DNA of 64,000 nt, taken from positions 141,610,001-141,674,000 of the forward strand of contig CM059431.1 of NCBI GenBank assembly GCA_030390025.1, written 5' to 3'. This document shows positions 25,972 to 54,520 of this stretch, piece by piece; the stretch's first letter is position 1, and every line of letters starts with the position of its first letter. The stretch comes from Squalus acanthias (Eukaryota). The notes beneath the pieces were generated by a model. The model was not told where the DNA came from and ran no database searches. It saw nothing but the letters and a program-made list of their open reading frames with translations. The translations under genes were made by a program, and so were the position numbers.

Positions 25972-26468
25972 GGGGTGTAATATTGGCCTTGGGTGGGAAT
26001 AACAATCAGCTGGTATCGCATGGGTCGCCTGATATATGTTCCGCCCGATATTCAGTCCCATTGCCTTCAATGGTGGTATCGCATGGGTCGCCTGATATAT
26101 GTTCCGCCCGATATTCAGTCCCATTGCCTTCAATGGTGGTATCGCATGGGTCGCCTGATATATGTTCAGCCCGATATTCAGTCCCATTGCCTTCAATGGT
26201 GATGTCGCATGGGTCGCCTGATATATGTTCCGCCCGATATTCAGTCCCATTGCCTTCAATGGTGGTATCGTATGGGTCGCCTGATATATGTTCAGCCCGA
26301 TATTCAGTCCCATTGCCTTCAATGGTGGTATCGCATGGGTCGCCTGATATATGTTCCGCCCGATTTTCAGTCCGTGAGGCATCAAATGAAAATCACACGG
26401 TTCCTATAACAGTCCGGAAATGGGATTCCACCTGCTTTGCTTCACCTCACATGTCCTATTTCACCCCC
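25972..26468. mobile_element. Short MITE whose core is amplified into a 63-bp tandem array
   Basis: TIR GGGGTGTAATA / TATTTCACCCC; absent from the paralogous position in the other duplication arm (~16120-16140). Confidence 0.65.
26011..26373. repeat. 63-bp minisatellite, ~5.8 copies
   Basis: Unit TGGTATCGCATGGGTCGCCTGATATATGTTCCGCCCGATATTCAGTCCCATTGCCTTCAATGG. Confidence 0.95.
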
Positions 26469-30998: not shown

Positions 30999-31009
30999 TA
31001 AAGTGTTAG

Positions 31010-32835
31010 GTTACCACTAGTACCGTAGATTCACCTTCATCGCTGGTGTAAGTGTAGGAAACCACGAGTACAGGACGAGCTCGTTAACACTAGTGTAAGT
31101 GCAGGGGTAACACTCATACCGGGGAAGCAGGTACACTTCTAGTGAATGTTTAGGGTACCACAGGTACTGAAGGAGCACGGTCACTACTAATGTAAATGTA
31201 GGAGTATCACTAGTACCGAAGAGCACTGCTATATCTAGTTTAATTTTAGGGGTACCACTAATACAAGAGTAACATGCTGACACCTAGTGTAAGTTTAACG
31301 GTACTACTTGAACCGGAGGAGCCCGGTTACCTCTCGTGTAAGTGTAAGGGCACCACTGGTGTAGGAGGAGCACGCTCAACACTAGTGTTAGTGTAGGGGT
31401 TCAAACTAGTGTAGGAGGAGCACGCTCAACACTAGTGTTAGTGTAGGGGTACAACTAGTGTAGGAGGAGCACGCTCAACATTAGTGTTAGGTTAGGGGTA
31501 CCACGAGTGAAGGAGGAGCACGGTCACCACGAGTATAATTTTATTGATACGATAATTTATGGAGCACCATGCACCAATCTAGTGTAAATGTAGGGTTATC
31601 TCTAGTGAAATTGTAGAGTACCACTACTACCAGTTGAGAACTGTGACCTCTAGAGTCAGTGTAGTGGTACCACTAGTACAGGAGGATCCCGCTCACTGTA
31701 AGTGTAATGTAGGCATGCCACTAGTACGGGAGGTGAATGCTCATCTCTCGTATAAGTGATTGTACAACAAGTACCAGAGGAGCAAGATCACATATAGTGT
31801 CAATGTCGGTTACCTGAGGAGCACGGTCACATAAATTGCAAGTGGCACATTTTTAGCAACACGTTCACATCAAGTGTATGTTTTGGGGACCACATGTACG
31901 GGAGGAGCACTCTCAATCCTAATGTAAATGTAGGGGTTCCACTGGTGCCAGAGGAGCACGGCCACCTCTAGTATAATTTCAGTGTTACCAATAGTACCGG
32001 AGGAGCCCAGTCACCTTTAGTGCAAGTGTAAGGTTCCCATAATACCGGAGATACACAGTCACATCTAGTGTAAGTGTAGGGGTTCCCCTAGTACCGGAAG
32101 ACAACGTTCACCATTGGTGTAACTTTTTTGAGACCACTTTTACCGGAGCCGCTTGCACAAACCTAGTGTAAGTGTAGGGGTAACACTGGGACAGGAGGGA
32201 CACGGTCACATCTAGTGTAAGTGTAGGGGTAACACTGGGGCAGGAGGGACACGGTCACATCTAGTGTCAGAGTTGGGGTAACACAGGGACAGGAGGGACA
32301 CGGTCACATCTAGTGTCAGTGTAGGGGTAGCATTGGGACAGGAGGGGCACGGTCACATCTAGTGTCAGTGTAGGGGTAACACTGGGACAAGAGGGGCACG
32401 GTCACATCTAGTGTAAGTGTAGGGGTAACACTGGGGCAGGAGGGACACGGTCACATCAAGTGTAAGTGTAGGTGTAACACTGGGACAGGAGGGACACGGT
32501 CACATCTAGTGTCAGAGTAGGGGTAACACTGGGACAGGAGGGACACGGTCACATCGAGTATCATTGTAGGGGTACCACTGAACAGGAGGAGCACACAAAC
32601 ATCCAATATATGAGGGGGGTTTTCGCTAGTACTGGAGGAGCTCTGTCAATAGTATTGTTAGTTTAGTGCTACCACTATTACCATAGCAGCACGTTCAGCT
32701 CTAGTAATTTACTAGTACCTGGGGAGCACGGACACATCTATCGTAAGTGTACGGTGCCAGTATTACAGGAGGAGCAATGTCAGCTCTAATCTAAATGTAG
32801 GGTACCATTAGTACAGGAGGAGCACTGTCACCGCT
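31010..32835. repeat. ~49-50-bp satellite, degenerate with a homogenised core (32163-32580)
   Basis: Core unit CTAGTGTAAGTGTAGGGGTAACACTGGGACAGGAGGGACACGGTCACAT (49 bp). Confidence 0.92.
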
Positions 32836-33186
32836 AATGTTGCCAGACTGGGTTCATCACCAGTATTGCAGGATTTGTTCTACCACCTGTTCCTGAGGAG
32901 TTGGTGCACTAATCAATGGCAGGGTCATGACGAATATTGCCTGGACAGCTGCATTCACCAGGCCTGTCGGACTAAGATCAGCACCAGTACTGGGAGATTG
33001 CAATTCCTACTCGTAAATAAGGTTTTAATCGTGTATTTTTTTTAATTGTGCAATAACAATTTCACATATTTCTCTTAATCTGATTTATCAGATAAAAAAC
33101 AACTTACCTGTGTTTATTTGTTCAATGACTGTTAATAATGCTAATTATGATATAACCTGATTGACTCGCTGGCGGATTGTTGTGTA

Positions 33187-33196
33187 GATAAATATA
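33187..33196 (+). promoter_or_regulatory. TATA-like element upstream of the GPCR
   Basis: GATAAATATA about 80 nt upstream of ATG 33274. Confidence 0.35.
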
Positions 33197-33273
33197 GGTT
33201 CCCTTCCATTGCCTCAGCCGTGCGCCAGTCAGAGACTTTCATCTCCGACAGAATTCATCCATTCTCACAGAAA

Positions 33274-34639
33274 ATGGGGCAATCAACTATTCTGCTGATC
33301 AAAGAGATTTACTACCCGATTCTCGCGGCCGTCTGTGTCCCTGGTGAGCCATTTTATCTTGTTTGTTGTTAATCGGTGTTAATTGTATTCATGTACATAC
33401 AACCTGCTTTGATAATGTAACGAGCTTTCCAGATGTCAGCATTACACTTAATCCGATAACCTTACTATTTTTACAATGTTCTTCGAAGCTCCAACACAAG
33501 GATTTTCGCGGATTTCCGAAACCGTCTTGTTCCCAAGTGCAGAGTGAGCGCTGCAGCAGCTCATTAAAGTGTGTTGGTGGGTTTTCCAGGTAATGGCTCC
33601 AATACTAATCCTGTTCACACACTGCTCCGTGTGGATAATCACACTGAATGGAGTAAAATGCTCTCTGCAGGCATCTCCATATATATTTCACTGAGACACT
33701 GGAATATTATTTCTCTCCTCTCTCTTTCTTCCAGCGAATTTGGTGACAATTGTGATTCTCTCCCGAGGAAACTGCGGCCTTTCCAAGTGTATTTCTGTCT
33801 ACATGGTGGCCATGGCAACAGCAAATCTACTGGTCGTGATGTTCAATGTAATATTGTATCATATTTTCAATTATCGCTTTCCACTTTCATTCCTGTACCA
33901 CACTCCCGTGTGTAAGTTCATTCTATACATGACTGCTGTCACCCTCGATTTGTCTGTTTGGTTCACCGTCTCCTTCAGATTTGATCGATTTGTAGTTATC
34001 TGCTGCCAGAAGTTTAAAGCAAAGTATTGCACCGAGAGAACTTCGGCCGCGGTTAAAACAGCGTTCACGGTCCTAATCTTTTTAAAGAACATCCCTGATT
34101 TTTTTGCCTTTCAACCTGAACAATTAATTAACAAGGAGCAGTGGGGCTGCCGGAAAAGTGTGACTTTTGTTTCCTCACCTCCAGGTGTTGCCTACATCTG
34201 GTTTCACAGCGCCTGGGGCGTTTGGCTTCCTTTTACTTTAATTGCCTTTTTTAATTATTTGACAGTCAGTCTTATTTTAGTGGCCAGCAGAGCCCGCAGG
34301 GGTCTCCGGGGTCACAGAAGTGAAAATCAGAGCGATATAGAGATGGAGAGCCGAAGGAAATCCATCATTTTACTCTTCACTTTATCGGGCAGTTTTATAT
34401 TGTTGTGGCTGACAACTGCCGTGAGTATGGTAACTACCAGACTGACAAACCCCACCTATTATCGAGGTGACCGCACAGACCCTGGATATATCGCCACTGA
34501 AACCGGAACAATGTTGAAGTTTTTGAGTTGCTTTCAAAACTCGTGTATTTATGTAGCGACCCAAAGGAAATTCAGAGAAGAGCTGAAGAAGGTGCTTAAA
34601 TCCCCCTGGGCACTCATTCAGAGAATAGTTAGAAAATGA
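33274..34639 (+). CDS. Class A GPCR, GPR139/GPR142-like; two exons, 324 aa
   Basis: Exon 1 33274-33343 (MGQSTILLIKEIYYPILAAVCVP, G|gtgag); intron 33344-33734 (ctttcttccag); exon 2 33735-34639. 975 nt open frame with 7 hydrophobic segments, DRF in TM3, NSCIY in TM7 and FREEL helix 8. Confidence 0.92.
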
Positions 34640-35599
34640 GAATTAAAGATTCAATCAAACGGAAGCTCCCTCGTCACTAAATCTCCATTTCAACTCCTTT
34701 TTCACCGTAGAACGTCCTTCTTTCTGGTAATGTGATGAGAAATTGTGTGAACATTTCTCCATTTTGAAGCATGTGTTTGATGTCTGCAATGCTTAATCTT
34801 TCATGCTTCTTTCGTTGAGTAAACATATCCTATTCCTGCAAATTTAGCACATTTCAAGTTCAGGGATCAAAGATAACAATGATGAGATTCAGCAGTGGAG
34901 TCGGACATGTGAGCAACAGAGGAATCCACCTTACACTGCAGATACTGGGATCGGGCGCGGCCACTTTAAAATCATCAATAAGTTTCATTCGGTGCAGAAA
35001 CAATCAAAGGTCATGCGGTCGCCGATATTGGCAACTTTCCTGGAGGTTTGGTGTGAATATTGCAGGCGCGGGTCTCTCTATCGGACTCCATTCCTCATTG
35101 ACAAATAGCGCGGGCTCTTGTCACGTGATCGGTGTTCGCATGGAGGAAGCAGTCCGAACTCGGCTCATCGATGTGACCTTTCACCTCTTTTGTCCCAGAT
35201 ACTGACTTAAAATTTCGATTGTCCACTAACTGATTTCTCTCACTCAGCACAAAGATGGAGTCTGCTCTTGTTTTCTGCTTTCGATAAAAATATCATGAGT
35301 AATATTGTTGATATTCTATCTCAATCAGTCTCCCAAACAAAGGTTTAAACGAATGTAAAATGAATGACTTTACATGAAGTTATTAATTATTACAATTGTT
35401 GCAAGTGATATGTTAAAAAAACTGCCAGAAATTCAGATAAAATACAACTAATATTAAGTCTTCGGTGTTTCGATGAGCATTGGCAGACGGTCAGAAAGGA
35501 TCTTTGGTCATTACCGTCTTATTATGCGGTTACACATTGTTCCAAATAATAATTGAAAAATACCAGCAACTTTGAATCAGTTAGAAATCGTTCACCGGT

Positions 35600-37200
35600 G
35601 ATCTCACCTGATTGTGGGAGAAACGCCAAGGAATGGGAGCAGGCTCTCAATGGGAAGGAGCTGAAGGGTGTGGATGGACAGCGAGAGATAGGGATCCAGA
35701 TATTCAATTCCGAGAAAGTTAATGAGCAAACCAACAGTAATTACAGTTTTATTGACAGGGACATTAATCACAAGAATAAACAAGTGATGATGAATCTTTA
35801 GAAAATACTGGTGAGGCCACCGTTGGAAGACCAGGTACAGCTTCGGTCCCTCATTGTGGAAAGGCCATTAAATCCACCGAGAGCGGGCAGTGTACATACA
35901 GCAGGATGATGCCATGGATCAGAATTTTACTGGTGATGAGGGTCAAGATATTGGGACTACTTACACTGGAGCAGCGAAAGATAACAGGAGAATTAATAGA
36001 GGTTTTAAAAATTATCAAAAGTTTCGTTAGAGTGAAGAGGGAGAGATTATTCCATCTAGTTGGGTAGCGAGCAATAAAGAGTGATCGAACTAAAATGGTC
36101 AAAAAGGGAATGAGCAGAGAGATTATCAGAAACTTCTTTATGCAAAGGGTGCTGGAGCACGGAATGTTTGGCCTCAGATAATAGTTAAGGGAAAGTTAGT
36201 TGAATATTTTAAAAATATAAAAAAAATTTTGTGGAGAGAGGAGGACAGTGCGGATAGTTTTTGATTGCTGTCTCAAAGAACCCAGTACAGATAGAATGGG
36301 TCAAATTACATACTCCCGCTCAGTACATTTCTGTGGTTTTATAGTGTTGCATAGGCTGCTATAATTTTAATTGTTTTTGTGTCTAAGATACCCTCAGCCC
36401 CATTGAGCTTCTATTGAACAAAATATTATAAATAAACTGAGACCAAGGAAGATCCCAGAGGTTCAGTAGTCACCCGTCCCTTACTGATCTCCATTTGTCG
36501 ATAAGCTACTTTCATTTTGTAATTAACTGTCTGTGCAGTGCCAGTTCTCCCACCCATCCCATAATTTCTCACCGTTTGTAGATGTGGAAGCTTGTTCGTT
36601 GCTTCATTAAAATCCGACTGCATTTCCCCTGCCCTACAGGCCATATATGTGTTTCAGAAACTCCAGCAGGTTAGTTAAAGATGACACATCGCTCCTCAAA
36701 CCAATATAATTCCCTTTTACATTACTGCCCTCCCAGGAGCTCGCTCACTAGATCTCTCCTGGCCTTATTTTAAACACTGGGATTATTTCAGCCGCTGTCG
36801 GATCCTCAGGAACCTTCTCTAATTGAGGAAACTTGCAGCAGTGTCAGTAAACCGTCATTCCTGTCAGTCCCCATTTCTTTATCTCGCGGTGTCTGTGCCC
36901 CTGGATTCCAAATGCCCATGTTATGTGGTTGAACACTGTAATTATATTTAAATAACGCCTTGATCGCTGTCTCTCGTACAAGCCTTTAATGATTCACATG
37001 TGATCTACATGATTTATTTTATTCACCAAGCTGCCTTTGCTGGTCCTTACGATCTACCTGATAGATTCTTGAATAATTAAATAACTTTTTCTTAATCCTT
37101 AATATTGCTCCCGACATAATGACGTGTACCCACGATGCCTCCTATTCTCTCTTAAACAGATAAATATAATTAAATTCCACACCCACTAGCTGCTTTTTAA
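35600..37200. mobile_element. Old CR1 fragments (+ 35600-36340; - ~36480-37200)
   Basis: Degenerate RT / C-terminal motifs (LVRPPLE, LLTLEQR). Confidence 0.6.
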
Positions 37201-37519
37201 CTACTTTCCGCTTGTCTAATCTAGTGTTCGGATCTCCTGGACCCGCACCAGTGCCGGAGTCTCACACGCGCACGGGTGGATTATTGGAAAATTATGGAAG
37301 CGCTTCCTCATTGGCTGAAGGTCACGGGCAATGTTCGAGACATAGAATCATAGAATCAGAAATCCCATAAGGAGACCATGCGGCCTATCATACCTCTCTC
37401 GGCTATTTGAAATAGGTATCCAATTAGTCCAACTCCACTGCTCTTTCCCCACAGCCCAGCAAGTCTTGCTTTTTCAAGTATATATCCAATTCCCTTTAAA
37501 AGTTACTATTTTTATAAAG

Positions 37520-37962
37520 ATGTCAGCAGTGGCTCTGTGGTAGCTCTCTCGCCTCTGCATCAGATGGTAGTGGCTTAAAATCCTGCTCCAGAGACTTGAG
37601 CACAAAATCTATGCTGACATCTCAATGCAGTAAATAGTGTATGCTGCATTGCCGGAGGTGCAGTCTTTCGGATGCAACGTCAAACCGAGACCCCTACTGC
37701 TCTGTCAGGAGAGCATAAAAGATCCCACAGCACTAGTTCAAAGAAGAGCAGAGGAGGTCGCCACAGAGACCTGGCCAATATTCATCCCTCAACCAACATC
37801 ACTAAAACAGATTATCTGGTCCTTTTCTCATTGCTGTTTGTGGGAGCTTGCTGTGCTCAAATTGGTTGTCCCGCTTCCTACATTACAACAGTAACTACAC
37901 TTGAAGGAGTACTTCATTGACAGTAAAGCGCTTTGGGACGTCTGTAGGTCGTGAAGGGAGCT
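37520..37962 (+). mobile_element. Deu-domain SINE
   Basis: Head tgtcagcagtggctctgtggtagc; core aaaagatcccacagcactagttcaaagaagagcag. Confidence 0.8.
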
Positions 37963-38189
37963 GTATTCTGCTTCGGGTACCCTTTCAGGCAATGCATTCC
38001 AGATCATAACAGCTCGCTATGTAAAAATAAATTCCCATCTCCTCGCTGGATCATTTGCCAATTACCTTATACTGTGGCCTTGATTACCAACGCTCCCGCC
38101 AATGGAAACAATGCTGCCTTATTTAGTCAAAGTCCCTCATAATTTTGAACAAATCCCCCTGATCTTTGCATGCTAAATGGAGAACTATC

Positions 38190-40330
38190 CCAGGTTCTGG
38201 CCATGTCGACAGTTTTCAGGTCTTAGTTTCACATTGATCTCTTTCTTGCACAGTTTGGAAGATTATTCTTTCATGGTTCTGTTTAATCAAAAATTTAAGG
38301 TTAAGCAAAATACTTTGTTAGTTTGTTAACCAATTCCCCTTTGAAACGGATCCAATCTCTTCTTTCAACGAATTTATCGATTCGCTGTTAATATAATTTC
38401 ACCGATCGAAATTTAAAAGCGGAAACAAAATAAGATTGATATTTTATTAATTCAAAGTGGGGCTGTCTCCGCCTATTCATTTGATCGACTCTTCCCGCTC
38501 TCCTTCACATCATGGCCCCGTTCTCCTGGTTCCCTTTCTTTCTGTCGCATCCCACACTCTGCCAGTTCCCAGTCTCACGGGTTCCCGCAAATTGCCAGAT
38601 CCCAGTCCCATGGTTTCCCGCACTCTGCCAGATCCCAGTCCCACGGGTTCCCGCACTCTGCCAGATCCCAGTCCCACGGGTTCCCGCACTCTGCCAGATC
38701 CCAGTCCTATGGGTTCCCGCACTCTGCCAGATCCCAGTCTCCCGGGTTCCCGCACTCTGCCAGTTCCCAGTCCCATGGGTTCCCGCAATCTGCCAGATCC
38801 CAGTCCCACGGGTTCCCGCACTCTGCCAGATCCCAGTTCCACGGGTTCCAACACTATGGCAGATCCCAGTCCCACGGGTTCCCGCACTCTGCCAGATCCC
38901 AGTCCCACGGGTTCCCGCACTCTGCCAGATCCCAGTCCCACGGGTTCCCGCACTCTGCCAGATCCCAGTCCCACGGGTTCCCGCACTCTGCCAGATCCCA
39001 GTCCCATGGGTTCCCGCAATCTGCCAGATCCCAATCCCACGGCTTCCCGCACTCTGCCATATCCCAGTCCCACGGTTTCCCGCAATCTGCCAGATCCCAG
39101 TCCCACGGGTTCCCACACTCTTCCGGATTCCAGTGCCACGGCTTCCCGCACTCTGCCAGATCCCAGTCCCACGGGTTCCTGCACTCTGCCAGATCCCAGT
39201 CCCACGGGTGCCCGCACTCTGCCAGATTCCAGTCCCACGGGTTCCCGCAATCTGCCAGATTCCAGTCCCACGGGTTTCCGCAATCTGCCAGATCCCAGTC
39301 CCAAGGGTTCACGCACTCTGCCAGATCCCAGTTCCACGGGTTCCAACACTATGGCAGATCCCAGTCCCACGGGTTCCCGCACTCTGCCAGATCCCAGTCC
39401 CACGGGTTCCCGCACTCTGCCAGATCCCAGTCCCACGGGTTCCCGCACTCTGCCAGATCCCAGTCCCATGGGTTCCCGCAATCTGCCAGATCCCAATCCC
39501 ACGGCTTCCCGCACTCTGCCATATCCCAGTCCCACGGTTTCCCGCAATCTGCCAGATCCCAGTCCCACGGGTTCCCACACTCTTCCGGATTCCAGTGCCA
39601 CGGCTTCCCGCACTCTGCCAGATCCCAGTCCCACGGGTTCCTGCACTCTGCCAGATTCCAGTCCCACGGGTTCCCGCAATCTGCCAGATTCCAGTCCCAC
39701 GGGTTTCCGCAATCTGCCAGATCCCAGTCCCACGGGTTCCCACACTCTTCCGGATTCCAGTGCCACGGCTTCCCGCACTCTGCCAGATCCCAGTCCCACG
39801 GGTTCCTGCACTCTGCCAGATCCCAGTCCCACGGGTGCCCGCACTCTGCCAGATTCCAGTCCCACGGGTTCCCGCAATCTGCCAGATTCCAGTCCCACGG
39901 GTTTCCGCAATCTGCCAGATCCCAGTCTCACGGGTTCCCACACTCTTCCGGATCCCAGTCCCACGGGTGCCCGCACTCTGCCAGTTCCCAGTCCCACGGG
40001 TTCCCGCACTCTGCAGTTCCCAGTCCCACGGGTTCCCGCACTCTGCCAGATTCCAGTCCCACGGGTTCCTGCACTCTGCCAGTTCCCGACCTCCTCTTTG
40101 TTCGAGAATGGCCGCTAGAATATCAGAGCGATAGAGTTCAAAGGAAATTTGTGATTGTCGTCACGAGAAGTTTTGGGCTTGCCTCATTTGGACTGTGTGG
40201 ACACATCTGGCAACCTAATCATAGAAAGAATATTTCTGCACTTTGTATATCACACATCTCAGCCAGAGATTCTAGGATTTCACAATTCCAGTTTTGAAGA
40301 AAATCTAGAAAATCGTGCTTTCTAAATGTA
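38190..40330 (+). pseudogene. Heavily decayed GPR139-like remnant interrupted by a 33-bp minisatellite
   Basis: Ordered motifs across frameshifts: VLAMSTV (~MVAMATA), FNQKFKVK (~CCQKFKAK), INSKWG (~INKEQWG), HHGPVLLVPF (~HSAWGVWLPF), then the repeat array, then EYQSDRVQRKFVI (~ENQSD...RKSII). Confidence 0.45.
38550..40087. repeat. 33-bp GC-rich minisatellite, ~46 copies
   Basis: Unit CCAGATCCCAGTCCCACGGGTTCCCGCACTCTG; a variant unit recurs at 495 bp (15 units). Confidence 0.97.
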
Positions 40331-40719
40331 GAAAAGAGGAAACCTCCAGTTGACCTAATGTCAGTTAGGAGAATGCACAAATTGCTCAAATTCTTCGCTC
40401 TGGCAAGGAGTTCAATCATAAATATCTACAAGTACAGAATGTGAAATTAAGAGTTACAGGGAAGCCGGACGGAACATTTCAGCTCTGGGTAACTGTATTC
40501 TGTATGTTATTTACTGAATTACCAGGAGGGTCATTCGGCACAAAACAATTTATCTGCTTCTTAAGTTGACAACTATATTATCGAAAGTTTATCACATGAC
40601 AAACATAACTTTCTGTAAACAAACTGCAACATCCATGTGCTGCGTAACACAAGCAAAGGTAAACTGATTAACTTCAATCTGAGGAGTTTAACAGTAAAGA
40701 TATACAACGAAGAAAGCAA

Positions 40720-41160
40720 GAAAATTATCTTGAACGAAGCGAATAGCATCAAAAATGCACCTATAAATGGAGTACACCTGTCATTATAATTACTGCAGTT
40801 TAGGAGGCAATAATACGAACTCTATTATTTAACGTTATTTTGTTAAGTTGCCGATTTATCCTAATCATCCTCACAGTTGTTAATGGGATAATCTGCGGTG
40901 CCTGTCCCTACTGTAACAATCCAAAGCTGCAGAATCAGTTATATGCACACCATTGAATTTAAAAAAGGAATTCTGTTGTGTTGTGTTGAAGGGGCCCATA
41001 TCATCAAAAAATGCACAGAATGTCCTGTGTTGTGAATCCAAGTATCTTCCCAGGTCGTGGCGATCCCGTTGTTTCAAAGCTGGGTTTTATTATCCTGAAA
41101 TATATATACTGCGGAATCAGATGAATCCTCCATTCACTGCTTTAACACCTCACTGAGGAA
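40720..41160 (+). pseudogene. Heavily decayed GPR139-like remnant
   Basis: Ordered fragments: IILN..QKCTY (~VILSR..SKCIS), LLFNVIL (FNVIL as in the intact gene), SCRFIL (~VCKFIL), VICTPLNLKKEFC, PPFT. Confidence 0.45.
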
Positions 41161-41609
41161 TTGGACTGACGAGATGTAGGAGCGGGGTTATGCTGCATTG
41201 CAGAATTGAGAGTTACACAGAATGACGTGCACTAATACGTTGCTGCATTCTGGGAGTTGTGTATTGTAATGATTGGATATAGTACGTGATGCGCTTTAAT
41301 TGAACCAGTAGCATTAATAAAACATGCTCTACTTTTCTGATTTATTCTAATTTCTCTTGAAAAAAATAAAAACCCTTTCACCCTTACTTACCTGTTAGTT
41401 GTAATTGTTGAGAAAAGCCTCGTGTAGGGGTCACGTGAATTTATGTCTTTCTGTGTAGTCTGAGCTCTTCACTGTGAACCCATAATCTCCCAAAGTTAGT
41501 TCAAGATTCCATATCCGCTTCCCACAATCAGTCACCTCGCTTTCTTCATACAGCATTTGTTAAATTTACACCCTACACTGACACGCACTTAGAACAATGG
41601 CACGGGGGT

Positions 41610-42980
41610 CATACAATCATAGAATCCCAGACTTATACAGTACAGAAGGAGGCCATTTGGCCCAACTTGCCTGTGCCGGCTCTATGAAAGAGATAGCCAA
41701 TTAGTCCCACTCCTCTGCTACTTATTGTTTTCATTCATTTTTACCTCTTCTCCCCGCTGTTTTTTGTGCCATTTACCTTAAATCTGTCATATGGCGATAA
41801 GGCCGGTGAATGGAAATGAGACAGAAGATCAGCCATGATCTCCTTGAATGGCGAAGCAGGATCGAAGGGCTCCTTCTCCTATTTCTTATGTTCTTATGTG
41901 TCCTTTGGTTACCGAAAAGTCTGCCCCTGAAAACAGTTTCTTCGAATTTACTTCATCAAAACCCATCCTAACTTGTATTCAACTTGGTGTTCCACTGAAT
42001 TATTTACCTAACATTTATCTTAAGCTTCCTGTTTCTGTTTTCAATTTTGATTTAAATTTTGACTTCAATTGTGGTTTCAGTTTTGCTAACAGGTCTCTCA
42101 TGTAGTACTTCATCAAACGCCTTTTTAAAGTCCATATATAAAACATCAACTGCACTAACCTCATCAACCCGCTCCGTTACTTCATGAAGGGACTCGATCA
42201 AGTTAGTAAAACAAACCTTGCTGGCGTTCATTGATTAACCCACATTTTCCAAGTGCTAAATAATTTTCTGTCGGATTATTGTCTACAAATGTTTCCGCAC
42301 GACGTTAGGCTGACTGGCCTATATTTGTCAGGTTTATCCCTCTCCCCTTTTTTGAACAGGTGTAATATTTGCAATCCATTGCTACTCTGATAGCACTCCC
42401 ATATCTAAGGAGGATTTGAAGATTTTGTTCAGAGTCTCTGCAATTTCCACCCTTACTTCCATCAGCTACCTCGGATACAGCCCATTTGGACCGGGTGACT
42501 TTTCTACTTTGAGCGCTGCCAACCTTTTAAGTACCTCCTCTTTATTTATGTTTTTCCTATCCAATTTCTCAGCTATCGCTTCCTTTACTGTGACATTGGC
42601 CGCATCCTTTTTATTTAGTGAAGACACATGCAAATTATTAATTTAGTACCTAAGCCATGCCCCCTGCTTGCACAAGAAGATCTCCTTGTTTGTCCCTAAC
42701 AGTCCCCATTCTTGAGAGTGCCACAATCCCGGAGGATCCCAGCACCACCTGCCTCTTCGCACCCTGCCAACTTACTATCCTCCTGAACTCACTGTGGCTG
42801 CGGGGTGACCAGCTCCTGGAACATGTGGTCGAGCAAATTCTCAGCCCTGCAGCGACTCCAGCCGCTCCTCAAGCTCCGAAACACTGAGCTAAAGTTCGAG
42901 CAGATGGAGCCACTTCATGGACACGTGATTATCATGGACAGGTGAAGCGCCCTGGAGTTCCAACATGTCTCAGGAATATC
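41610..42980 (-). mobile_element. Rearranged CR1 fragments (3' UTR, RT, ORF1)
   Basis: Reverse-strand KSPGPNGLYPR and DVLYMDF motifs; ORF1 relic. Confidence 0.7.
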
Positions 42981-43289
42981 CACTGTTGTTATCAATGTAA
43001 GTTGCAGCATTTAAATTCAACAGTGACAGAAATCACAATGGAAGCTTAAAGAGAGTTTGAAAATAAAATAACATTAAATTAAATTTAACCAGAGTACATT
43101 AAACTAAATTAAATTGAAATAAATTAAATTAAATGATAATAAATTAATTACAGTAAATTAAATCTAGTTTGTTATATGGCACTTTAGGCATTACAGAATT
43201 ACCGTCCGATTTGCCTTGCACAGCGATATTTTTCCCAATTTTCTTATGTACTTTTCTTGTAGAGTTGCAGAGTGAACGGTTATCCTGGG

Positions 43290-44095
43290 GCTGACGCGCT
43301 TGGTGTTGTGTTTTACTCCCCTACCTTGGTGGTCCGTCGGAATTCCGGGACTGGGGTAACTAACATTTGGTCACTGAGAAAGCCGAAGCATTGTGACACA
43401 GACACTAATCGGCGGCAGCATTTCCTGTTGTAAGACAATCAGACTGTGACCTCACTTCCTGCGGCCCATCGCAAAGAGCGCCACAGTCTGGAGTAGGGGC
43501 TCCTGATGACGTATTGGGCCTTTCAAAGGTGAATCTGCTTCGCCACACTTCTGACACTAACAACCAATGGGTGCAACGCTCAGGCGATTCTGTGAAGTGT
43601 CACCAATTATATTCAGGAGCTACTGAATCTTTCACTCCCTGCAGTTTGTTTGTTCAGCAGCTTTGTTTTATTTTTTGCAGCTCAAGGATAACAAATACAT
43701 TGCTAATATTTATGCTTAAGGTTTTTTCGAGATCATTTGATTGTGGACATCGGCTCTGTGCATTGATTTGTACCTTTAATCTAAGGCAAAATGTATTAAT
43801 TCCAGCCAAGGTAAAGATCCCTTTACAATCTTCTAACATTGAATGGAACAATTGACAGATTCCAACGCTAAGTGCGGCCGTCAGACTCAGGACGGAACTC
43901 TGCAATCCTCCACTAACAGTCTACAGCCACAGAACTCTCTGCACTGTTATACAAACACATCCAACGTGATCATCGTATTCCGACTTATAGAACGGAGAAC
44001 TTCGCGTGAGTTAGAGTCCAACTATTCCAGTCTTTCTTTCTACCTCATTATGCAATAGATTGACAGCAAACATTTAAATCTGTTGCTGCGTCTAA
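43290..44095 (+). pseudogene. Heavily decayed GPR139/142-like remnant
   Basis: Ordered fragments with stops and frameshifts: LGVVFYSPTLVV/VGIPG (TM1), FHSLQF (ICL2), PFTIF/TLNGTI...SGRNSAIL (TM5-TM6), NYSSLSFYL and SK/FKSVAAS (TM7-H8). These resemble my recollection of GPR139 PCSIFFILN..GKTTAIL..NFFLY..SKRFRTMAA. Confidence 0.45.
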
Positions 44096-45149
44096 GAGTT
44101 TATGAGAGTCGGTTTCATCTACAGGAAGTGAAATCTGACCCACAATCCAAACGCTGCCACTGCCCAACTGACTGTGATAGTAGAGTCTTGAAACAATTGG
44201 TGGCTACTTCAGCAGTGTCGGCACATTATCAATTAGTATTCGGAAACTATGGAACAAGATAATAACTCTGTATCTACTGAACTTTGCTCCGCTTTAATTA
44301 ATTCTGCCGAATAAGGCACAGGTTCATTTGAATATTCCAACTTCGATGGGGTGTAAACTGCCGGTGGGATATTTTACACTCCGCCCAATGGTCTTTTTCA
44401 TTAGAGTCAATGGAAGGGAAATTCGGCGGCCTGTATGATTGGCGGACAGTCCGCTCCAGACAGATTTCCACCCAGTCCGAAATTGAAATTAAGTTTATTT
44501 TCAGGATATTCAGTTTCCATTAAACCCAAATGGATCGATAAGTTACTTTACAACTTGTGTTTAAAACAGCTTAAATTGGGGTCGCTGAAATGTTCCTTAC
44601 AACTAATACTGGAGGATTGGATGAAAATAATGAACTTGGGGTGAAATTAACCATGGGAGGAGGGTCCAAACCGGCGGAATCACATTGTTCTCCTGTTATC
44701 AGCTGCTATAGAACTGAATATTAGACGGTGCCTATAACAAAGAATTTTGCCTTATCGCCAAGACGAGTTTCTACCCCTTGCATTTCTATAGCGCCTTTCA
44801 AGGCCTCCGGACGTCCTAACGCGCCTCACAGCGAATACAGTACTTTTAAAGTGTAGTCACTGCAGTAATCTCAGGCAATTCGGAAGCCAAATTGCGCACA
44901 ACAAGGTCCCATAAACAACAATAAAATAAATCACAAAATAGGACAACATTGGGCATAGGCGGGGAACACGAAACGATCGGTCTTGCATCGATCGCCTGTT
45001 ATACATTGGCCCAATATTCAGTTACATTAACGTAACGAGAGCTGAATATCGGGCATGTTGTATAACCATCGGCAAATGCCCAACTGGGCGCAAAATAACG
45101 CCATGCAGACATTTGCAGGCATCAGTAGATGGGAGAAAGCGCACAAACC

Positions 45150-46420
45150 TTCTATGAAAAATAAAACAGATTCCAGCCAATACATTTTGACGGAAATTTG
45201 AACCAACAGAATAACCTATATATGTGATGCCCATCAATCACAGAAGGCGTTTAAACATCGAGTGGACACTATATACCCGGTTACACATATTCTATGTGTA
45301 ACCGGGTATATTGAAGGAGAGTGGAAGCAGTCCGCGGCATCACCTCTGCTGATCTTACACATCCTGCAATGTGAACGGTGGATTTGGCCAATCCCAGGGG
45401 CAGCCCGTCCTCCACATCTTCCAATCAATAACCCAAACACCGCTGCTTATATTGGAAAACAGTTTCAGTTGAGGCACAGCAGGAGGGCGGAAAAAATGTC
45501 AGTTAATTGGCTCAAGTATTCATCTGGTGTCTTTGAACTGAGCAAAGCTCTCAAACCCAGGTCTCCAGTGGGGCCGGGCGTATCTCCCAATACACCGCCT
45601 TGACTGGGGGATACCCGGTCAACACCAGTTGGTAAAAGGCAGGGGGTATTATATATTATTGTCTGTGTGCAAACACAGGCAGAGGATTGTTCCATCTCAA
45701 TACCTGGCTATTACATTGTGCAGATCGTTGAATTAACTGCCCCTATTATTTAGGATATTATGAATTCTTACACAGCGTAACCAGGTCGCTAATTCAGATT
45801 AACTGCAACCAGGTTCCCTGTGAAAAAATTAGTAAAAGCAAATATCAGCTTTACTTTAATGTAGCTGCAAAGCCTTCAACTTATTCTCAGTAATAGAGAC
45901 ATCAGAAAAAACAGGTAAAACGACGCAACGCGAGTTAACATTCAAAGAAATGCTGAACCATCGCGACACTGTGAAGGAGACAGCGGCACCGCTCCATATT
46001 CCCAGGAGACGGGATGAGGCGGCCCGTGCAGCTTCAATCAGTCCAGTGCAACATTTTCAGCAAACCTGCGAGAACAATTAAGGTCTCCAAGAGTTCTAAA
46101 CTGTCGAATCTTATCCTAAATCTGGCCGATATTCCTGTCAATTATACGGTAGAATTAATTTAAAGTCCTCGCTCTGTCAGATATTAAACACGTTGATCAA
46201 ATATTCTATTCCATTATTAAACTTCATTCATCACTGACACTTTTCATCCTAAAGGCGGAATGTCCTCATTGGGCAGGGGTCATCAGTTAACGAACTGTTG
46301 AAATCCAGGGTCAATGTTGGGTTAAATGCCACAGGGGACACAGATATAGCCACGTACCTGAGAGACTTAACAATAACCATCTTGATGTAGCTGTATGGAG
46401 AGAGAACCACAAATCTAAGC
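45150..46420 (-). pseudogene. Possible decayed two-exon GPR139-like remnant
   Basis: Donor CAG|gtacg at 46357 and acceptor ttttttcacag|GG AAC CTG GTT GCA GTT (GNLVAV) at 45817, which is the same phase-1 intron position as the intact GPCR. Later come FSNISSGVWVI and YSVGSNFRQNVL; many stops. Confidence 0.3.
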
Positions 46421-46464
46421 TGCAGTAGGAACTAACAGTGAATTCTAATGTTCCATAGCGAGCT

Positions 46465-47324
46465 CTAGTTAAAATTTCTTTGATTTTTAAACAATCTTCG
46501 AATCAGTGTCCAGGGAGATTTCAGCACCTTCTTCAGCTCTTCTCTGAATTTCCTCTGGGTCGCTGCATAAATACACGGGTTTATACAGGAACTCAAAAGC
46601 TTCAGCATGGCTCCGGTTTCAGTGGCGATATAGGCTGGGTTTGTGCGGTCACCTCGGTAATAATTGGGGTTTGACAATCCGGTAGTTGCAAAACTCACAA
46701 CAACTGTCAACCACAACAGTACAAAACTGCCCGAAATAGTGAAGAGTAAAATGATGGATTTCCTTCGATTCTCAATCTCTGGATCGATCTGATTCTCACT
46801 GCTGTGACCCCGGAGTCCCCTACGGGCTCTGCTGGCCACTACAATACGTCGGACAGTTAAAGAATTACACAAGGCGATTAAAGTAAAACGAAGCCAAACT
46901 ACCCAGACGCTGTAAAACCAGTAGTACGCTGCACCTGGAGGTGAGGTAAAGAAAGCCACACTTGACCGGCAGCCCCACTGCACCTTGTTAATTATTTGCT
47001 GAGATTCATATGCAAACATAAAGGGAATGTTCTTTAACAAGGTCAGAACAGAGAACATTGTTATAATCGCGACCGCGGTTTTCTTGGTGCAATGTTTTGT
47101 TTTAAACTTCTGGCAGCAGATAACTACACATCGGTCAAATGTGAAGGAGACGGTGAACCAAATAGACAAATCGATGGTGACAGTAGTGATGTATAGAATG
47201 AACTTACACACCGGAGTGTGGGACAGGAATGAAAGTGGAAAGTGATAACTGAAAATATGATACATCATTACATTGAAGATCATGACCAATAGATCTGCTG
47301 TTGCCATGGCCACCATGTAGACAG
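46465..47324 (-). pseudogene. GPR139-like GPCR, 5'-truncated (TM1 and exon 1 lost)
   Basis: Close paralogue of 33274-34639 from VYMVAMATADLL to the stop (DRC, NPCIY, FREEL). Homology ends abruptly at 47324, and upstream lies a CR1 RT fragment (FADDT on the + strand). TM5 LPF has become LRF. Confidence 0.8.
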
Positions 47325-47479
47325 TTTTCAGGTCTTTTTGCTGATGATACCATGATAGTTGGGAAAGCAAAGTGTGTGGAGGACGCAAAGAATCCCCAAA
47401 GGGATATAGATAGGCTGAGTGAGTGGGCAAAAATCTGCCAGATGGAGTTTAATTTCTGAAAATGCGAGGTTATCCACTT

Positions 47480-48030
47480 TGTGGTACTAGTCGAACCCTT
47501 AATATTATCATAGAGTGTACCGTGCTTATCCACTGTTAGTGGTATCCTACACTTATACGAGATGTAAGCGTGTTTCTCCTTCACTACTAATTACAATACA
47601 CCTACACTGGAGGTGACCGCGCTCATCCGATTCTGGTGGTACACAACACTAGAGAGAGGTGAATATGTGAAAGCTGATGAAGTGATTCCGGATGATGCAC
47701 ATGTTCACTGACGACACCCAGCTCTGCCTCCCCACCACCTGTCCCGATCCCTCCGCTGTCTCTAACTCGTCAGTTCGTGTCCAACATCCATTACTGCATG
47801 CGCAGAAATTGCCTCCAACTAAATATTAGGAAGACCAAATTAGTTGCCTACGGTCAACGCCAGAAACTCAATTCACTAGCCACCAACTCCCTCTCTCTCC
47901 CTACGATAAATGTAACCGTAACCTCCGATGCTCCCTACACTTAGACTAGAGGTGACCGTGCTGCTCCGGGACTAGTGGCACCTACACTTGCACGAGAAGT
48001 GTCCACCCTCCTATGGTACAGGGGGTACAC
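47480..48030 (-). repeat. Degenerate reverse-strand copies of the 49-bp satellite, split by an L2-like fragment (~47690-47900)
   Basis: For example 47934 cctacacttagactagaggtgaccgtgctgctccgggactagtgg is the reverse complement of the unit. Confidence 0.75.
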
Positions 48031-48034
48031 AACA

Positions 48035-49805
48035 TTTTCTTTCGTTCCTGGGATGTGGGCGTCGCTGGCAAGTCCAGCATTTATTGCCCATCCCTAATTC
48101 TCCATGAGAAGGTGGTGGGGAGCCGACTTTTTGAAACCTCTGCAGTCAGTGTGGTGAAGGTACTCCCAAAGTGCTGTTAGGGAGGAAGCTCCAGGATTTT
48201 GAGCCAGCGACGATGAAGAATCGGCGATATATTTCAAAGTGAGGATGGTGTATGACTTGGTGTTGAAGTTGGAGGTGGTAGTGTTCCCATTCGCCTACTG
48301 CCCTTGTCCTTCTAGGTGGAAGAGGTTGCAGGTTTTTGAGTTGCAGTCGAAAAAACCTTGACAAGTTGCTGCAGGTTTTCCTGTAAATGGTACACACTGC
48401 TGCCATGGTACGCCGGTGGTGGACTGTTTAAGGTGGTGAATGGGGTGCCAACTAAACGGACCGCTTTGTCTTGAATCGTGACGACCTTCTTGAGTGTTGT
48501 TGGAGCTGCACATATCTACGCAAGTGCAGACTATTCCATCACACTCCTTACTTATGCCTTGCAGATGGTGGGAATGCTTTAGGGAGTCAGGAGGTGAGAC
48601 ACTCGCCACAGAATACCCGGCCTCTGACCAGCTCTTATAGCCACAATATTTATGTGGCTTCTCCAGTTAAGTTTCTGGTCAAAGATGACTCCCAGGTTGT
48701 TATAGGTGGGAGATTCGGCGATTGTAATGCCGTTGAATGTCAAGGGACGGTGGTTAGACTCACTTTTTTTGAAGATAGTCATTGACTGGCACTTGGGTGG
48801 CACGAATGTTACTTGCCACTTTTCAGCCCAAACCTGGATGTCGTCCAGGGCTTTCTACATGCGAGCATGGGCTGCTTTTTTTTCTGAGGAGTTGTGAATG
48901 GAACTGAACGCTGTGCAATAATCAACGAACGTCCCCAATTCTGACCTTATATGAAGCAGCTGAAGATGGTTCGGCCTAGGACTCTGAACTCCTGCAGCGA
49001 TGTCCTGAGGCTGAGGTGATTGAACTCCAACAGCGACAGCAATCTTCTTTTGTGCTAGGTATCACTCCAGCCAGTGGAGAACTTTCCCCCGATTTCCATT
49101 GTCATCAATTTTACAAGGGCTCCTTGATGACACACTCGGTCCAATGCTGCCTTGATGTCAAGCGCAGTCACTCTCACCTCACCTCTGGAATTCAGCTCCT
49201 TTGTCCATGTTTGGCTGAAAGCTGTAATGAGGTCAGGAGCCGAGTGGTCTTGGCAGAACCCAAACTGGGCATCAGTGAGCAGGTTATTGGTGAGTAAGTG
49301 CCGCTTGATAGCACTGTCGATTACACCTTCCATCACTTTGCTGATGATTGAGAGAAGACTGATGGGGTGGTAATTGACTTCTTTGGATTTTCCCTGCTTT
49401 TTGCGGACAGGACATACATGGTCAGTTTTCCACACTGTCTGGTGAATGCCATTGTAGCAGCTGTACTGGAACTGTTTGGCAAGATGCGCAGCTAGTTCTG
49501 GACCACAATCTTCAGCACGAATGCCGGGATGCTATCGGGTCCGATAGGCTTTCCTTGTCCAGTGTGCTCATCCGTTCTGATATCAAGTGGAGTAAATCTA
49601 ATTGGCTGAAGACTGCGTTCTGTGATGTTGGGGACCTCAGGAGGAGGTCGAGATGGATCATCTACTCGGCACTGCTGACTGAAGATTGTTGCAAAATCTT
49701 CAGCCTTGTCTTTTATACTTGCACGCTGGGCTCTTCCTTTATTTAGGATGGGGATGTTCATGGAGCCTCCTCCTCCCGTTAATTGCTTAATTGACAGCAC
49801 CATTC
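48035..49805 (-). mobile_element. Non-LTR retrotransposon RT (family distinct from the CR1 copies); 3' fragments also at ~11365-11875(+), 13110-13510(+), 28820-29180, 52250-52530, 54520-55050
   Basis: ORF 49055..49435 (NYHPISLLSIISKVME, QFGF, ALDIKAALDRV); shared tail AATAAATGCTGGCCTTGCCAGCGACGC. Confidence 0.85.
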
Positions 49806-49809
49806 ACTT

Positions 49810-52180
49810 TCAGAAGAGGTGACAGTGCGGAACGTGCGCTGGGAAAGTCTGGCGCTGATTTTCCAACGCTCGAATATTTCCAGCACTCACGCTGTCCACT
49901 GCATGAAAATGGAAGTTGAATTCTGTTGGAATTTCCCGCTCTACCGTCCATAGCACGACTCACAAAACCCCATCAATGACAAGCTGCTTGTTGCTCGGTG
50001 GCGGTTGTCAGGAGCGATTCTTATTGGATCCATTTTATTGGGATTGTGCACGTGGGGAAAATTTCTTTCTGGAGATTCCATGTTTTTGGCCTTGTACTAT
50101 CGCCAGCTCACGAACGGTTTCTCCGTCACCACCGGTGCTGTGGGATATTTTGGACCTTCCCCTGCTCCTGTGTCTATGGAGAGCAGGAACAGGAAAATGA
50201 CGAGGAGCAGCAGGGCAAGCAGGCAGCTGGAGACTCGCTTCAGGAAGAAGTCGCCCAGGAGAGCCCAGTGCCCGCTGTCAGATATCTGTGACCGCAGGTC
50301 AGAGGTGGCACCGGAACTGAAATAAGACAAGAGACATCTGAAATATAAACTAGTCCGGTTATCCCGGAGCTCTGCTCCACAACTACCAAGCCTCCCATCG
50401 GAAAACATCCTGATTCTCTTTTAACGAAAAATTACCGAGAATCTACAGCACAGAAACAGAACATTCGGCCCAACTGATCCAGGCCGGTGTTTATGCTCCA
50501 CACAAGCCTCCTGCCACCCTTCTTCAGGTTGCCCTATCAGTACATCCTCATATTCCTCTCTCCCTCATGTACTTACATAGCTTCCCCTTAAATGCATCTA
50601 AGCTATTTGCTTCAATGATTCCACAGTAGCAGGTTCCACATGCTCACTACTATCTGTGTAAATAAGTTTCTCCTGAATTCCCTGTTGGATTTATTAGCGA
50701 ATATCGAATATGGTCCCTAGTTTAGGATACTCCAGCAAGTGGAAACATCTTCTCTACATCCCCACTATCAAAGCCCTTCATAAGTTTAAAGCCCTCTATG
50801 AGGGCACCCATCAGCCTTCTCTTTTCTTGAGAAAAAAACACCAGCCTGTTCAATTTTTCGTGAAAGTTATATCCTCTCAGTTCTGATATAACTCTTGTAA
50901 ATATTTGTTGAAACTTCTCCAGTGACTCTCTATCCTTTTAGTAATACGTCTATCTCACCGGGACAACCCATCTTGGCCTAATTATTTCCGCTTATCCAAA
51001 TAGAGTTAAAAATGAAAGGAAACCATTCTGTGTGCTTTCCTCTTTTGATAACCCGCGGTGTCCCTGCCGACTCCTACAATTATAGGCTCGTTCATTCCAG
51101 CCTCTCCCCTCTCCTCATTGGGCCTTCAGCACCAGGTGGTTCTGACCTGACTGACTGATGCTCTCCAGGACGTTTCTTGTGGGACTGAGGCGGCACATTC
51201 TTAGATTTGGTGTTGGGTTATTTCCCCTTTGAGAAGAAAGTGCAGAGTGTGAAGCCGCTCCGCTTGGCTTTATCCAGCAAGTAACTCAGGTTTCAGAAAG
51301 CGGTCCTTAATGTGGGTGATAACAGGGGCAGAAAGCAGATAATAAGCGTCATGTGAGTCTTTCACTGATTTCCGACATGTCCGTCTGATTGAAGGAAGGC
51401 CTGTCGGGACAGGACGGGGTTGGGTGAAGTGTATTGAGTACCCCCTGCACTTTGCTATCCAGCTCTTCTGGTGATCAATGCAAAGAGGCCCGGGGACTGG
51501 CAATGGTGAACATGGTTATTATAGCGCACTGTTACATGGGGCACTGACTCCTGTGACCTTGGCTGCTCCGAAGACGTCACTGAAATTCTTCCATCTTTCA
51601 GTAATCAAGCAAGCTCTGCTGGAGGTGACAATCACTGCCACGGATAACCTCCTCCCACTGGGCTTGGACTGTCCCCTCCGCGGCCCTCCTGCCCTCAGAA
51701 CCATGAAGTCGGTTGGTCCTTTGTTGTACTTCATACAGTAACAACAAGCTGAAGAGGGTGTGAATGTGAGGGCTCAGTGTATGAGGAACCAGCATCCTTT
51801 GACACTGCTGTAATCCAGCGAGTTTCACAAATTGAACCCTGCATTTCCCATACCATTGCTGCAGCAAGTTCGGCACCAAATTTCATGTTCAGCCCCAGCA
51901 CGAGGTGGGATCCTAATATCGGGTAAATGGGCCGAGTGTCTCCGCTAGATATTTGATTGGGGAAACCGGGAAAAGCACTGCCGGGATCACGGCGGGGTCA
52001 CTCAGATGGGTGTAATTTCCGGTCGCAGTGCACTTGGGATGTTTATGAGCCAGCGAATTAAATCGAGCCCCCTGGACAGATATTTGTCCGTCCGCACTCG
52101 GGCGTAACGTAGCGATTACACAAAGCGCACAGAGCAAAACAGGACGAGGAGGATTCGCGTGGAACCAGGGAATTCGCCCA
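49810..52180. mobile_element. Decayed autonomous PIF/Harbinger transposon (transposase +, Myb/SANT-like ORF -), interrupted by CR1
   Basis: Plus strand ~50230-50320 RL/RFRK/EVAQE..YL*PQVRGGT and ~51505-51560 GEHGY...LTP (transposase-like). Minus strand ~51560-51720 QAQWEEV and RWKNFSDVFGAAK (trihelix-like). Confidence 0.55.
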
Positions 52181-53604
52181 ATGTTCCCTCCATTGATTTT
52201 CGTCTAAGTGCACCGCCCAGGCACTCCTTTACTTTGTCAAAAAATATTTATGGGATCTGGGCGTCGCTGGCAAAGCCAGCATTTATTGCCCATCCCTAGT
52301 TGCCCTTGAGAACCGCTGCCGTCCGTGTGGTGAAGTTAGGGAGGGAGTTCCAGCATTTTGACCCAGCGACGATGAAGGATCGGCGATATACTTCTAAGTC
52401 AGGATGGTGTGTGACTTGGAGGGGAACTTGGAGGTGATGGTGTTCCCATGCGCCTGCTGCCTTTGTCCTTCTAGGTAGAAGTGATCGCGGGTTTGGGAGG
52501 TGCTGCCGAAGAAGCCTTGGCGAGTTCCTCAGTGAATTTCCCCAGCGCTATGAGGGCTCATCCACCCCCGGGGACTTTCCCTGCGGTGGTTCACTGTACC
52601 TGACTCGGGCTGGCGCGGCCCTCTGACGCCCGCTTCTGCCCCGCTATATATTGTAAGTTTGATAGTTGAGAGCTTTTATTCTGTCCGCTCACCACATCCT
52701 CCCAGCCCGACGGCCGCCGACTCAATGCCCATTTCGTTTTATTGTTTGGACGACAGGAAGCCCTACGATGCTTTGCTCTGAGTTTTATGGATCCACTGCC
52801 AGTGGACAGGGTTCTAGTGACTGAATTGGGCACGTTACATAACTACATATGATTGACCAATAAAACGGGGGCTCTCGGTTTTCCAACCATCAGGCGGGGT
52901 TTCAGTGTAAATTCATTCTTTCCCCCTGGCAGGTGAAGCGCATGCGCTCTTTATACGGAACACTCGGATATTCAGCATAACACCGCGAGCTGGAGCTGGC
53001 CTCATCCAAAGGGGGGAGTTCTCCACATCTGGATCCTTCCCATCACGATCCCGTTCATGCTCAGTGCTCTCGTTGCTCAGGAGGTTTATTCTCTTCCAGC
53101 GAGGTAGATCATCTGCACTGTGGGATATTAAAGTGAGGCGTCACATCCCGCCCTCTCGATTTAATCATTATCACAACCCCTTTCAGTGCCGCTGCTTTCC
53201 GTCTTCTCTACAGCACAGACCGAGTCCGGCCTGACATGGTAAACTTTGTAGGGAGCAGTTGAGGGTCCATTAGTTGAGAACAGTCACTGAGCTGTGAGAC
53301 TCTCTGCCCCACTGCTGATTACAGGTAAACGCGCTGTGAATCGGGATTGGATTCCTTTCCTGTGCTGACCCAGTAGACTGTGATGATCAGCGATTCAGCA
53401 CAATTAATGGATTCAGTACAACCCAACCCCACTGATCATTGTAAATGGACCGAACCACCTAGATACATGTGGGTGACGGGACTGGCCAGGATGGACTGAT
53501 CATTACAATAGATTGATCACTGCAGCCCAATCCCACTGATCATTGTAAATGCGCCATTTAGCTACATGTGGAAAAGGCCATTCACAAGGATGGACTGCTC
53601 ATTA

Positions 53605-54520
53605 CAACAACAATAACCTTCATTTATATAATGCATTTAATTTAGTAAAACGCCCCAAGATGCTTCACGTTAGCGGAATCAGACAAAACGGGATACCGAG
53701 CCAAAGAAGGAGATATTAGGACAGGTGACCAAAAGTTTGGTCAAAGACTTAGGTTTTAAGGAGCTCTTTAAAGGAGGAGAGATAGGTGGAGAGGTTTAGG
53801 GAGGGAATTCCAGAGCTTAGAGCCTAAACAGCTGAAGGCACATCCGCCAATAGTGGGGAGAAGAAAATAGGGGTGCACAAGCGGCCAGATTTGGAGCAAT
53901 GCAGACATCTCAGAGGACTGTAAGGCTGGATAAGTTGACAGAGATAGGGAAGGTGGGGGCAATGGAGCGAATTGAATACGAGGATGTATGTCTCTGAATC
54001 GAGACGTTGCTGGAGCGAGAGCCAATGTAGTTCAACGAGCAAAGGGTGATGTGTGAATGGGACTTGGTGCGAGTAAGGTTCTGGGCAGCAGAGTTTTGGG
54101 TGAGCTTATGTTTATGGAATGTGGGAGATGGGAGGCCGGACAGAATGTCTTTGGATAGTCAAGTCTGGAGGTGGCAAAAGCATGGAGGGTTCTGGCGGCC
54201 GATGGAGCGGAGCTGGCAGATGTTCCGCAGTCTTTGTGATGGAGACGATATGAGGTCAGTAGCTGAGCTGGGGCGCCGAGTTTGCGAACACGATGGTTCA
54301 GCCTGAGACATTGGTCATGGAGATAAATTGAATCGATGGCGAGTGAATGGAATTTGTGGCAGAGACCAACAACAATGGATTCAGTCTGCCCAATGTTTAA
54401 TTGAAGGCTCATCCACGACTGCAGGTCAGACAAGCGGTTTGACAACACAGAGGCAGTGGAGGTGTCGAGAGAGGTGGTGGTGAGGTAGAACGGTGTATCG
54501 TCAGCATACATGTGGAATCA
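53605..54520 (-). mobile_element. L2-clade LINE RT 3' half
   Basis: ORF 54032..54511 (MYADDT...TSRLDY); (CAA)n tail at ~53605. Confidence 0.85.

Follow-up and report, generated by a model that had tools for sequence, protein, structure and literature searches.

Two facing receptor genes

We analysed a window of 64,000 nucleotides of the Squalus acanthias genome (positions 141,610,001 to 141,674,000 of contig CM059431.1; coordinates below count from its first letter). It is rich in pieces of long and short interspersed elements (LINEs and SINEs) and carries two convergent genes, A and B, for class A G-protein-coupled receptors (GPCRs). Very probably, the locus consists of two facing copies of one cassette from a shark-expanded family of orphan class A GPCRs, with non-coding flank and repeats and no receptor relics between them, gene B being a recent deletion pseudogene. 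In itself the locus is unremarkable, a gene and a pseudogene from a large, automatically annotated and little-studied family. The initial annotation had described an intact receptor gene, a close paralogue lacking the first transmembrane helix (TM1) and four decayed receptor copies, here called ghosts. The two genes were confirmed and the ghosts were not.

Gene A lies on the forward strand. Exon 1 (33274-33343) encodes residues 1-23 plus 1 nt, stops at a GT donor and matches positions 1-25 of the family profile with 54 bits. A predicted intron of 391 nt follows (33344-33734, GT...AG, read from the sequence), and exon 2 (33735-34639) runs to the stop codon. The whole amounts to 324 codons plus stop, a 975-nt open frame with intact splice sites, and the product is a class A GPCR (Pfam 7tm_1, E 6.3e-15). 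The 7tm_1 bit scores of the two genes are 55.8 and 73.9, with a gathering cut-off of 30.5. Both carry the class A motifs D-R at the end of TM3, W6.48 and N7.49/Y7.53, together with the cysteine pair linking position 3.25 to extracellular loop 2 (ECL2), and both belong to the class A (rhodopsin-like) GPCRs, gene B without TM1. The ESM Atlas returned 7tm_1 clusters for the receptor and nothing else. A simple hydropathy scan, which resolved 4 peaks, was set aside and not used.

Gene B lies on the reverse strand (46465-47324). It is a 5'-truncated paralogue that starts at residue 44 and continues to residue 324, and it is 71.5% identical to gene A in amino acids and 84.8% identical in nucleotides (over 841 nt). 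The frame is open, with no stop and no frameshift over 281 codons.

How sound is gene A itself? Two near-invariant sites of the family are changed in its exon 2: position 54 (2.50) is N where 117 of 120 relatives have D, and position 105 is R where 117 of 120 have T (all family figures come from the 120 listed of 1278 matches). Nine of its residues are absent from all 120 relatives, a number that 11 of the 120 reach, and the changes derived in gene A amount to 26, vs 27 in the broken gene B. These observations count against our account, since gene A itself might be decaying. At the extreme it would be an unbroken but non-functional copy, and the locus would hold no working receptor. We consider this unlikely, though a serious contender. 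The frame, the splice sites and the upstream region are intact; the DR motif, both disulphide cysteines, W6.48, N7.49 and Y7.53 are retained; and N2.50 is also present in a conserved salamander relative, so this change need not disable the gene. Between genes A and B, a simple counting method gives a nonsynonymous divergence (dN) of 0.15 and a synonymous divergence (dS) of 0.25, with dN below dS (Fisher p 0.015). The resulting dN/dS of 0.60 points to weak constraint, and we regard gene A as probably a weakly constrained copy that still functions.

The proposed ghosts score as background DNA

Four receptor pseudogenes had been proposed by eye between the two genes, at 38190-40330, 40720-41160, 43290-44095 and 45150-46420 (ghosts 1 to 4). 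All four score as background DNA: there are two real genes and no demonstrable ghosts. The comparison used codon profiles that model frameshifts and long inserts as states, built from 120 close relatives and from 59 divergent representatives (taken from 148 new rows, of which 68 had 230 or more columns filled, with 9 distant tail rows excluded). With these profiles the real genes reach 480-870 bits, against 13-23 bits for the ghosts at strict gap costs. The check set beforehand, a frameshift-aware alignment compared with shuffled sequence, was run in this way and went against the ghosts, with p below 0.05 in 11 of 126 correlated and uncorrected tests (1/30, 6/48 and 4/48). When real tiles of the window served as the control, this happened in 1 of 96 tests (ghost 1, + strand, p 0.008, at the loosest gap costs only). 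Under family-wise control with 157-163 real tiles per length, P over six settings ranged from 0.18 to 0.50 for the best ghost and from 0.18 to 0.67 when the ghosts were summed.

Ordered chains of family 4-mers, a count that mimics the search by eye, had lengths of 3, 2, 5 and 4 in ghosts 1 to 4, vs tile medians of 4, 3, 4 and 6 and a value of 53 in gene B. None of the 7TM Pfam families matched any of the 24 ghost reading frames, and permissive tblastn outside genes A and B stayed at chance level (best E 0.2, with gene A as query). A six-frame hmmsearch with the family hidden Markov model found exon 1 and exon 2 of gene A and gene B, and nothing more. In a scan of tiles across the whole window the top seven were the two genes, and the next ones (23.5-25.0 bits) fell outside the ghosts. 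None of the four intervals shows more colinear resemblance to the family than chance would produce. Their content is of other kinds. Ghost 1, said to lie in unique DNA, is for 70% of its length a 33-bp minisatellite (38550-40087, 46.6 copies). Ghosts 2 and 3 are non-coding flank, the former covered by several contigs of relatives at 86-91% identity, and ghost 4 is the 3' flank of gene B. Inside the window, ghosts 2 to 4 have no second copies.

A number of results weigh against this reading. Nominal p values of 0.008-0.04 are scattered over ghost 4 on the - strand and ghost 1 on the + strand. Ghost 4 (-) is the most frequent marginal case, with p 0.015-0.04 against shuffles in 6 of 9 close-profile settings, and ghost 1 (+) reached p 0.02/0.008 once. 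For the inter-gene region as a whole, p against shuffles was 0.024 (+) and 0.049 (-) when long inserts were cheapest. The power of the close profile on 450-nt relics was 40/40 up to 0.4 substitutions per site and 33-36/40 at 0.5, falling to 18-23/40 at 0.6, and that of the broad profile was lower (23/30 at 0.4, 17/30 at 0.5). Relics older than about 0.6 substitutions per site may therefore escape the profile, and the family has many members and undergoes turnover. One or more of the ghosts, most likely 1 or 4, could thus be receptor pseudogenes of great age, beyond 0.6 substitutions per site. We find this improbable. The signal of ghost 4 (-) vanishes against real tiles (p 0.058-0.38) and under family-wise control, that of the inter-gene region is gone at both higher long-insert costs, and that of ghost 1 failed to recur with the broad profile. 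The motif chains are no longer than background, and a relic hidden from a profile of 120 sequences would be beyond recognition by eye.

Gene B: a probable recent loss by deletion

The 5' part of gene B has been replaced. What is absent is the equivalent of 32841-33794 in gene A, which holds the promoter, exon 1 and TM1, and this stretch of gene A has no convincing counterpart in the rest of the window (best E 0.025). In its place are 12 nt of filler (47325-47336) and a 146-nt internal reverse-transcriptase segment of a LINE on the + strand (47337-47482), cut at both ends. This piece, which we take to be of CR1 type from motifs of its second open reading frame (ORF2), shares 72-74% identity with the LINE copies of 2-146 and 57588-57730. 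Beyond it stands a remnant of the same 49-bp tandem array that precedes gene A (see below). With the array upstream in place and the equivalent of 32841-33794 gone, gene B is a copy of the cassette with an internal deletion.

Sequence runs of relatives bear on the junctions. Contigs of relatives stop at 47324 or start at 47484 and then continue into different sequence; in run X18, three listed pieces end at 47324, two of them with unmatched letters left, and run X9 adds two pieces to these contigs. This fits junctions that would be private to this copy of the gene.

The 24-mer over the breakpoint of gene B (47313-47336) recurs, with 23 of 24 positions identical, at 38201-38224 on the + strand, about 9 kb away. 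No other site with up to 7 mismatches exists on either strand of the whole window, which makes 38201-38224 a candidate template of the 12-nt filler. The pair is possibly the scar of a templated insertion, in which the filler would have been copied after annealing at an 11/12 microhomology. At 38201, the copy adjoins a LINE 3' fragment on the side where that fragment is truncated.

The loss appears to be recent, since the frame is still open: in 2000 simulated runs, an open frame survived in 4.7% at a neutral divergence of 0.03 and in 1% at 0.05. We infer that gene B died recently, through a deletion with templated filler of the kind left by microhomology-mediated repair, and that it is a young pseudogene. 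The open frame over 281 codons, and the mere three residues never seen in the 120 relatives, would also suit a functional six-helix variant, or one with a new first exon. This we regard as very improbable. The region equivalent to the promoter is missing, and position 5.50 is R where 117 of 120 relatives have P. A profile of residues 1-43, run on the gene B strand over the 16.7 kb upstream that lie inside the window, scored 21.9, and shuffles reached 28.0. A weak match of residues 13-42 at 51033-52503 was rejected, being a post hoc choice whose second half falls within an interspersed repeat.

Shared arrays and diverged flanks

A degenerate 49-bp tandem array lies upstream of gene A at 31001-32840 on the + strand (period 49 from Tandem Repeats Finder, extent from blastn), with autocorrelation peaks at 49 and 98. 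The remnant upstream of gene B (47484-48040, - strand) has the same orientation relative to its gene and is 64-75% identical to it. A repeat splits this remnant at about 47651-47924, and the middle piece matches 54308-54521. Within the window, the 49-bp array occurs ahead of the two receptor genes and at no other place, and it has no match among the window's 26-, 33- and 63-bp arrays. Two of these are young and unrelated to it, one at 63319-63863 (26 bp x 21, 95% matches) and one at 26011-26373 (63 bp x 5.8, 96% matches).

Past the stop codon, the 3' flanks of genes A and B do not align. The coding regions are 85% identical, the similarity stops at the stop codon (34636 and 46484), and the upstream arrays are 64-75% alike. 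Such an abrupt divergence of the flanks could possibly reflect gene conversion or flanks that were replaced. A 41-nt near-perfect palindrome (45271-45311, 93% self-complementary) sits in the 3' flank of gene B. Rfam gave no match across 31000-48500.

We compared four sequence runs of relatives (X1, X9, X13 and X18) over 40100-47900. In X1 and X9, sites across 40100-46400 had the same variant in up to 15 contigs. Pieces listed for these two runs are mostly 86-91% identical, with a summed depth of about 120-940, vs less than 45 in X13 and X18 (read depth here does not equal copy number). This suggests that 40100-46400 may be a multi-copy flank of the receptor cassette in some relatives, of two related species. 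In X9, one contig skips 303 nt at 44258-44560 and a second one 104 nt of the receptor coding sequence, at 46997-47100, hinting at further broken receptor copies in the relatives.

Taken together, these features could be explained by duplication of the whole cassette, that is, the 49-bp array, promoter, short exon 1, intron and long exon 2. Receptor copies would die by deletion, and gene B would be one such death, its gap filled by 12 templated nucleotides next to a CR1 piece. Gene A has an open and spliceable frame, splicing being predicted. At about even odds, many receptors with different pockets would signal through a shared G protein.

A shark-expanded family with a variable pocket

A protein search with the receptor found 1278 relatives among 2098 candidates. 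All 120 listed come from sharks; most bear the name "probable GPR139", and they are 60-78% identical over 87-100% of exon 2. This range includes automatic elasmobranch models of a "probable G-protein coupled receptor 139" (P0002 of Pristiophorus japonicus and P0005 of Heptranchias perlo), from which gene A differs by N2.50 and R105 and gene B by its 5' truncation. A quick tree, computed from 55 rows without true GPR139 or GPR142 sequences, places genes A and B within a subclade of 13 rows of shark models (support of 99 by the approximate likelihood ratio test, SH-aLRT). They are not drawn as sisters inside it, and the inner branch has a support of 87. By identity and by nesting among shark members, both genes belong to this shark-expanded family. 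It is undescribed in the titles and abstract beginnings of the literature on GPR139-like receptors of sharks, elasmobranchs and chondrichthyans, a coverage that leaves most subscription journals outside, and the available part of PMC11979771 does not mention it.

We measured column entropy in the 59 divergent members. It was 2.73 bits at 20 approximate pocket positions, assigned by alignment, 2.20 bits in the outer helix halves and 1.12 bits in the inner halves. The pocket positions are hypervariable and the face towards the G protein is conserved. The family has many copies, birth and death, and a variable ligand pocket, the traits of a repertoire of chemosensory type. Families of class A GPCRs commonly vary more on the outer face than on the inner face; this tells against our interpretation, being no proof by itself of a sensory repertoire. 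We hold it about an even chance that the family is a ligand-diversified repertoire for detection, in which numerous receptors, differing in their pockets and sharing a G-protein face, would recognise varied small molecules or peptides, and not Trp or Phe as GPR139 does.

The initial annotation had also seen here a rapidly turning-over array of receptors. Turnover is supported at the level of the family, by the 1278 relatives, the hypervariable pocket, the dN/dS of 0.60 and the recent truncation of gene B. A local graveyard of up to six genes is not supported, given the null results for the ghosts. The value of these results rests with the family, which is shark-expanded, has a strongly variable pocket and has a conserved Xenopus counterpart amenable to work on ligands and tissues. 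Should the family serve a sensory or immune role, tallies of the receptor repertoires of sharks lack a major family.

Comparison with known receptors

Human GPR139 (PDB 7VUG, 9M42) is the best match of the family profile among solved structures (E 1.6e-17), followed by CCR1 (8.3e-13). Gene A is a distant relative of it, about a quarter identical in a count by eye and scoring 22 bits (phmmer E 8e-4), vs 70 and 53 bits for the coelacanth and salamander paralogues. F109, H187, W241 and N271 are critical for the activation of GPR139 according to the part of PMC5430874 that is available, and the available part of PMC6367278 likewise covers F109. Mapped through sequence alignments with the human protein, gene A keeps two of the four (H187 and W241) and gene B one (W241), and the positions of F109 and N271 are A/T and T/A in genes A/B. 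W241 is a general class A residue. The shark family has Cys3.25 and an ECL2 cysteine, whereas GPR139 aligns an Asp at 3.25. By both identity and ligand residues, the family, although automatically named GPR139, does not appear to be a GPR139 orthologue, and there is no support for extending to it the response to aromatic amino acids established for mammalian GPR139 and GPR142.

A second GPR139-like lineage, with copies in catshark and sawshark, forms a clade apart from the shark expansion (SH-aLRT 98). It includes P0213, P0304 and relatives from catshark, sawshark, coelacanth, fishes, amphibians, turtles and squamates; mammals and birds are absent from the named rows among the 120 matches listed. 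Three of its models are named as TMEM183A isoforms, suggesting a neighbouring gene. GPR210A and GPR210B have been described as subtypes related to GPR139/142 in coelacanth, gar and fishes (PMC6504862, in its available portion, from which the word "shark" is absent), and the wider GPR139/142-related group is common to them and to the shark family. One of these two subtypes may be represented by the coelacanth P0213 together with its counterpart in catshark, P0304.

The closer comparison is with a GPR139-like orphan of amphibians and sturgeon (P0209 of Pleurodeles, P0283 of Xenopus, P0299 of Acipenser), which is 32% identical to gene A and joins the shark set in one clade of the quick tree (SH-aLRT 96). 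The salamander query retrieved 25 proteins: 20 from amphibians, one from sturgeon and 4 from elasmobranchs. The 20 amphibians have one match per species, 66-74% identical to P0209, whereas sharks have a large and diverse set. We therefore propose, tentatively and at somewhat less than even chances, that sharks may have turned an orphan related to GPR139, present once per species in amphibians and also in sturgeon, into a large chemosensory or immune repertoire. Its pockets would be hypervariable and its turnover would proceed by duplication of the cassette of array, promoter and gene, with gene B as an early death that bears the scar of a templated repair. If so, the shark repertoire would hold a further receptor family beside OR, TAAR, V1R and V2R.

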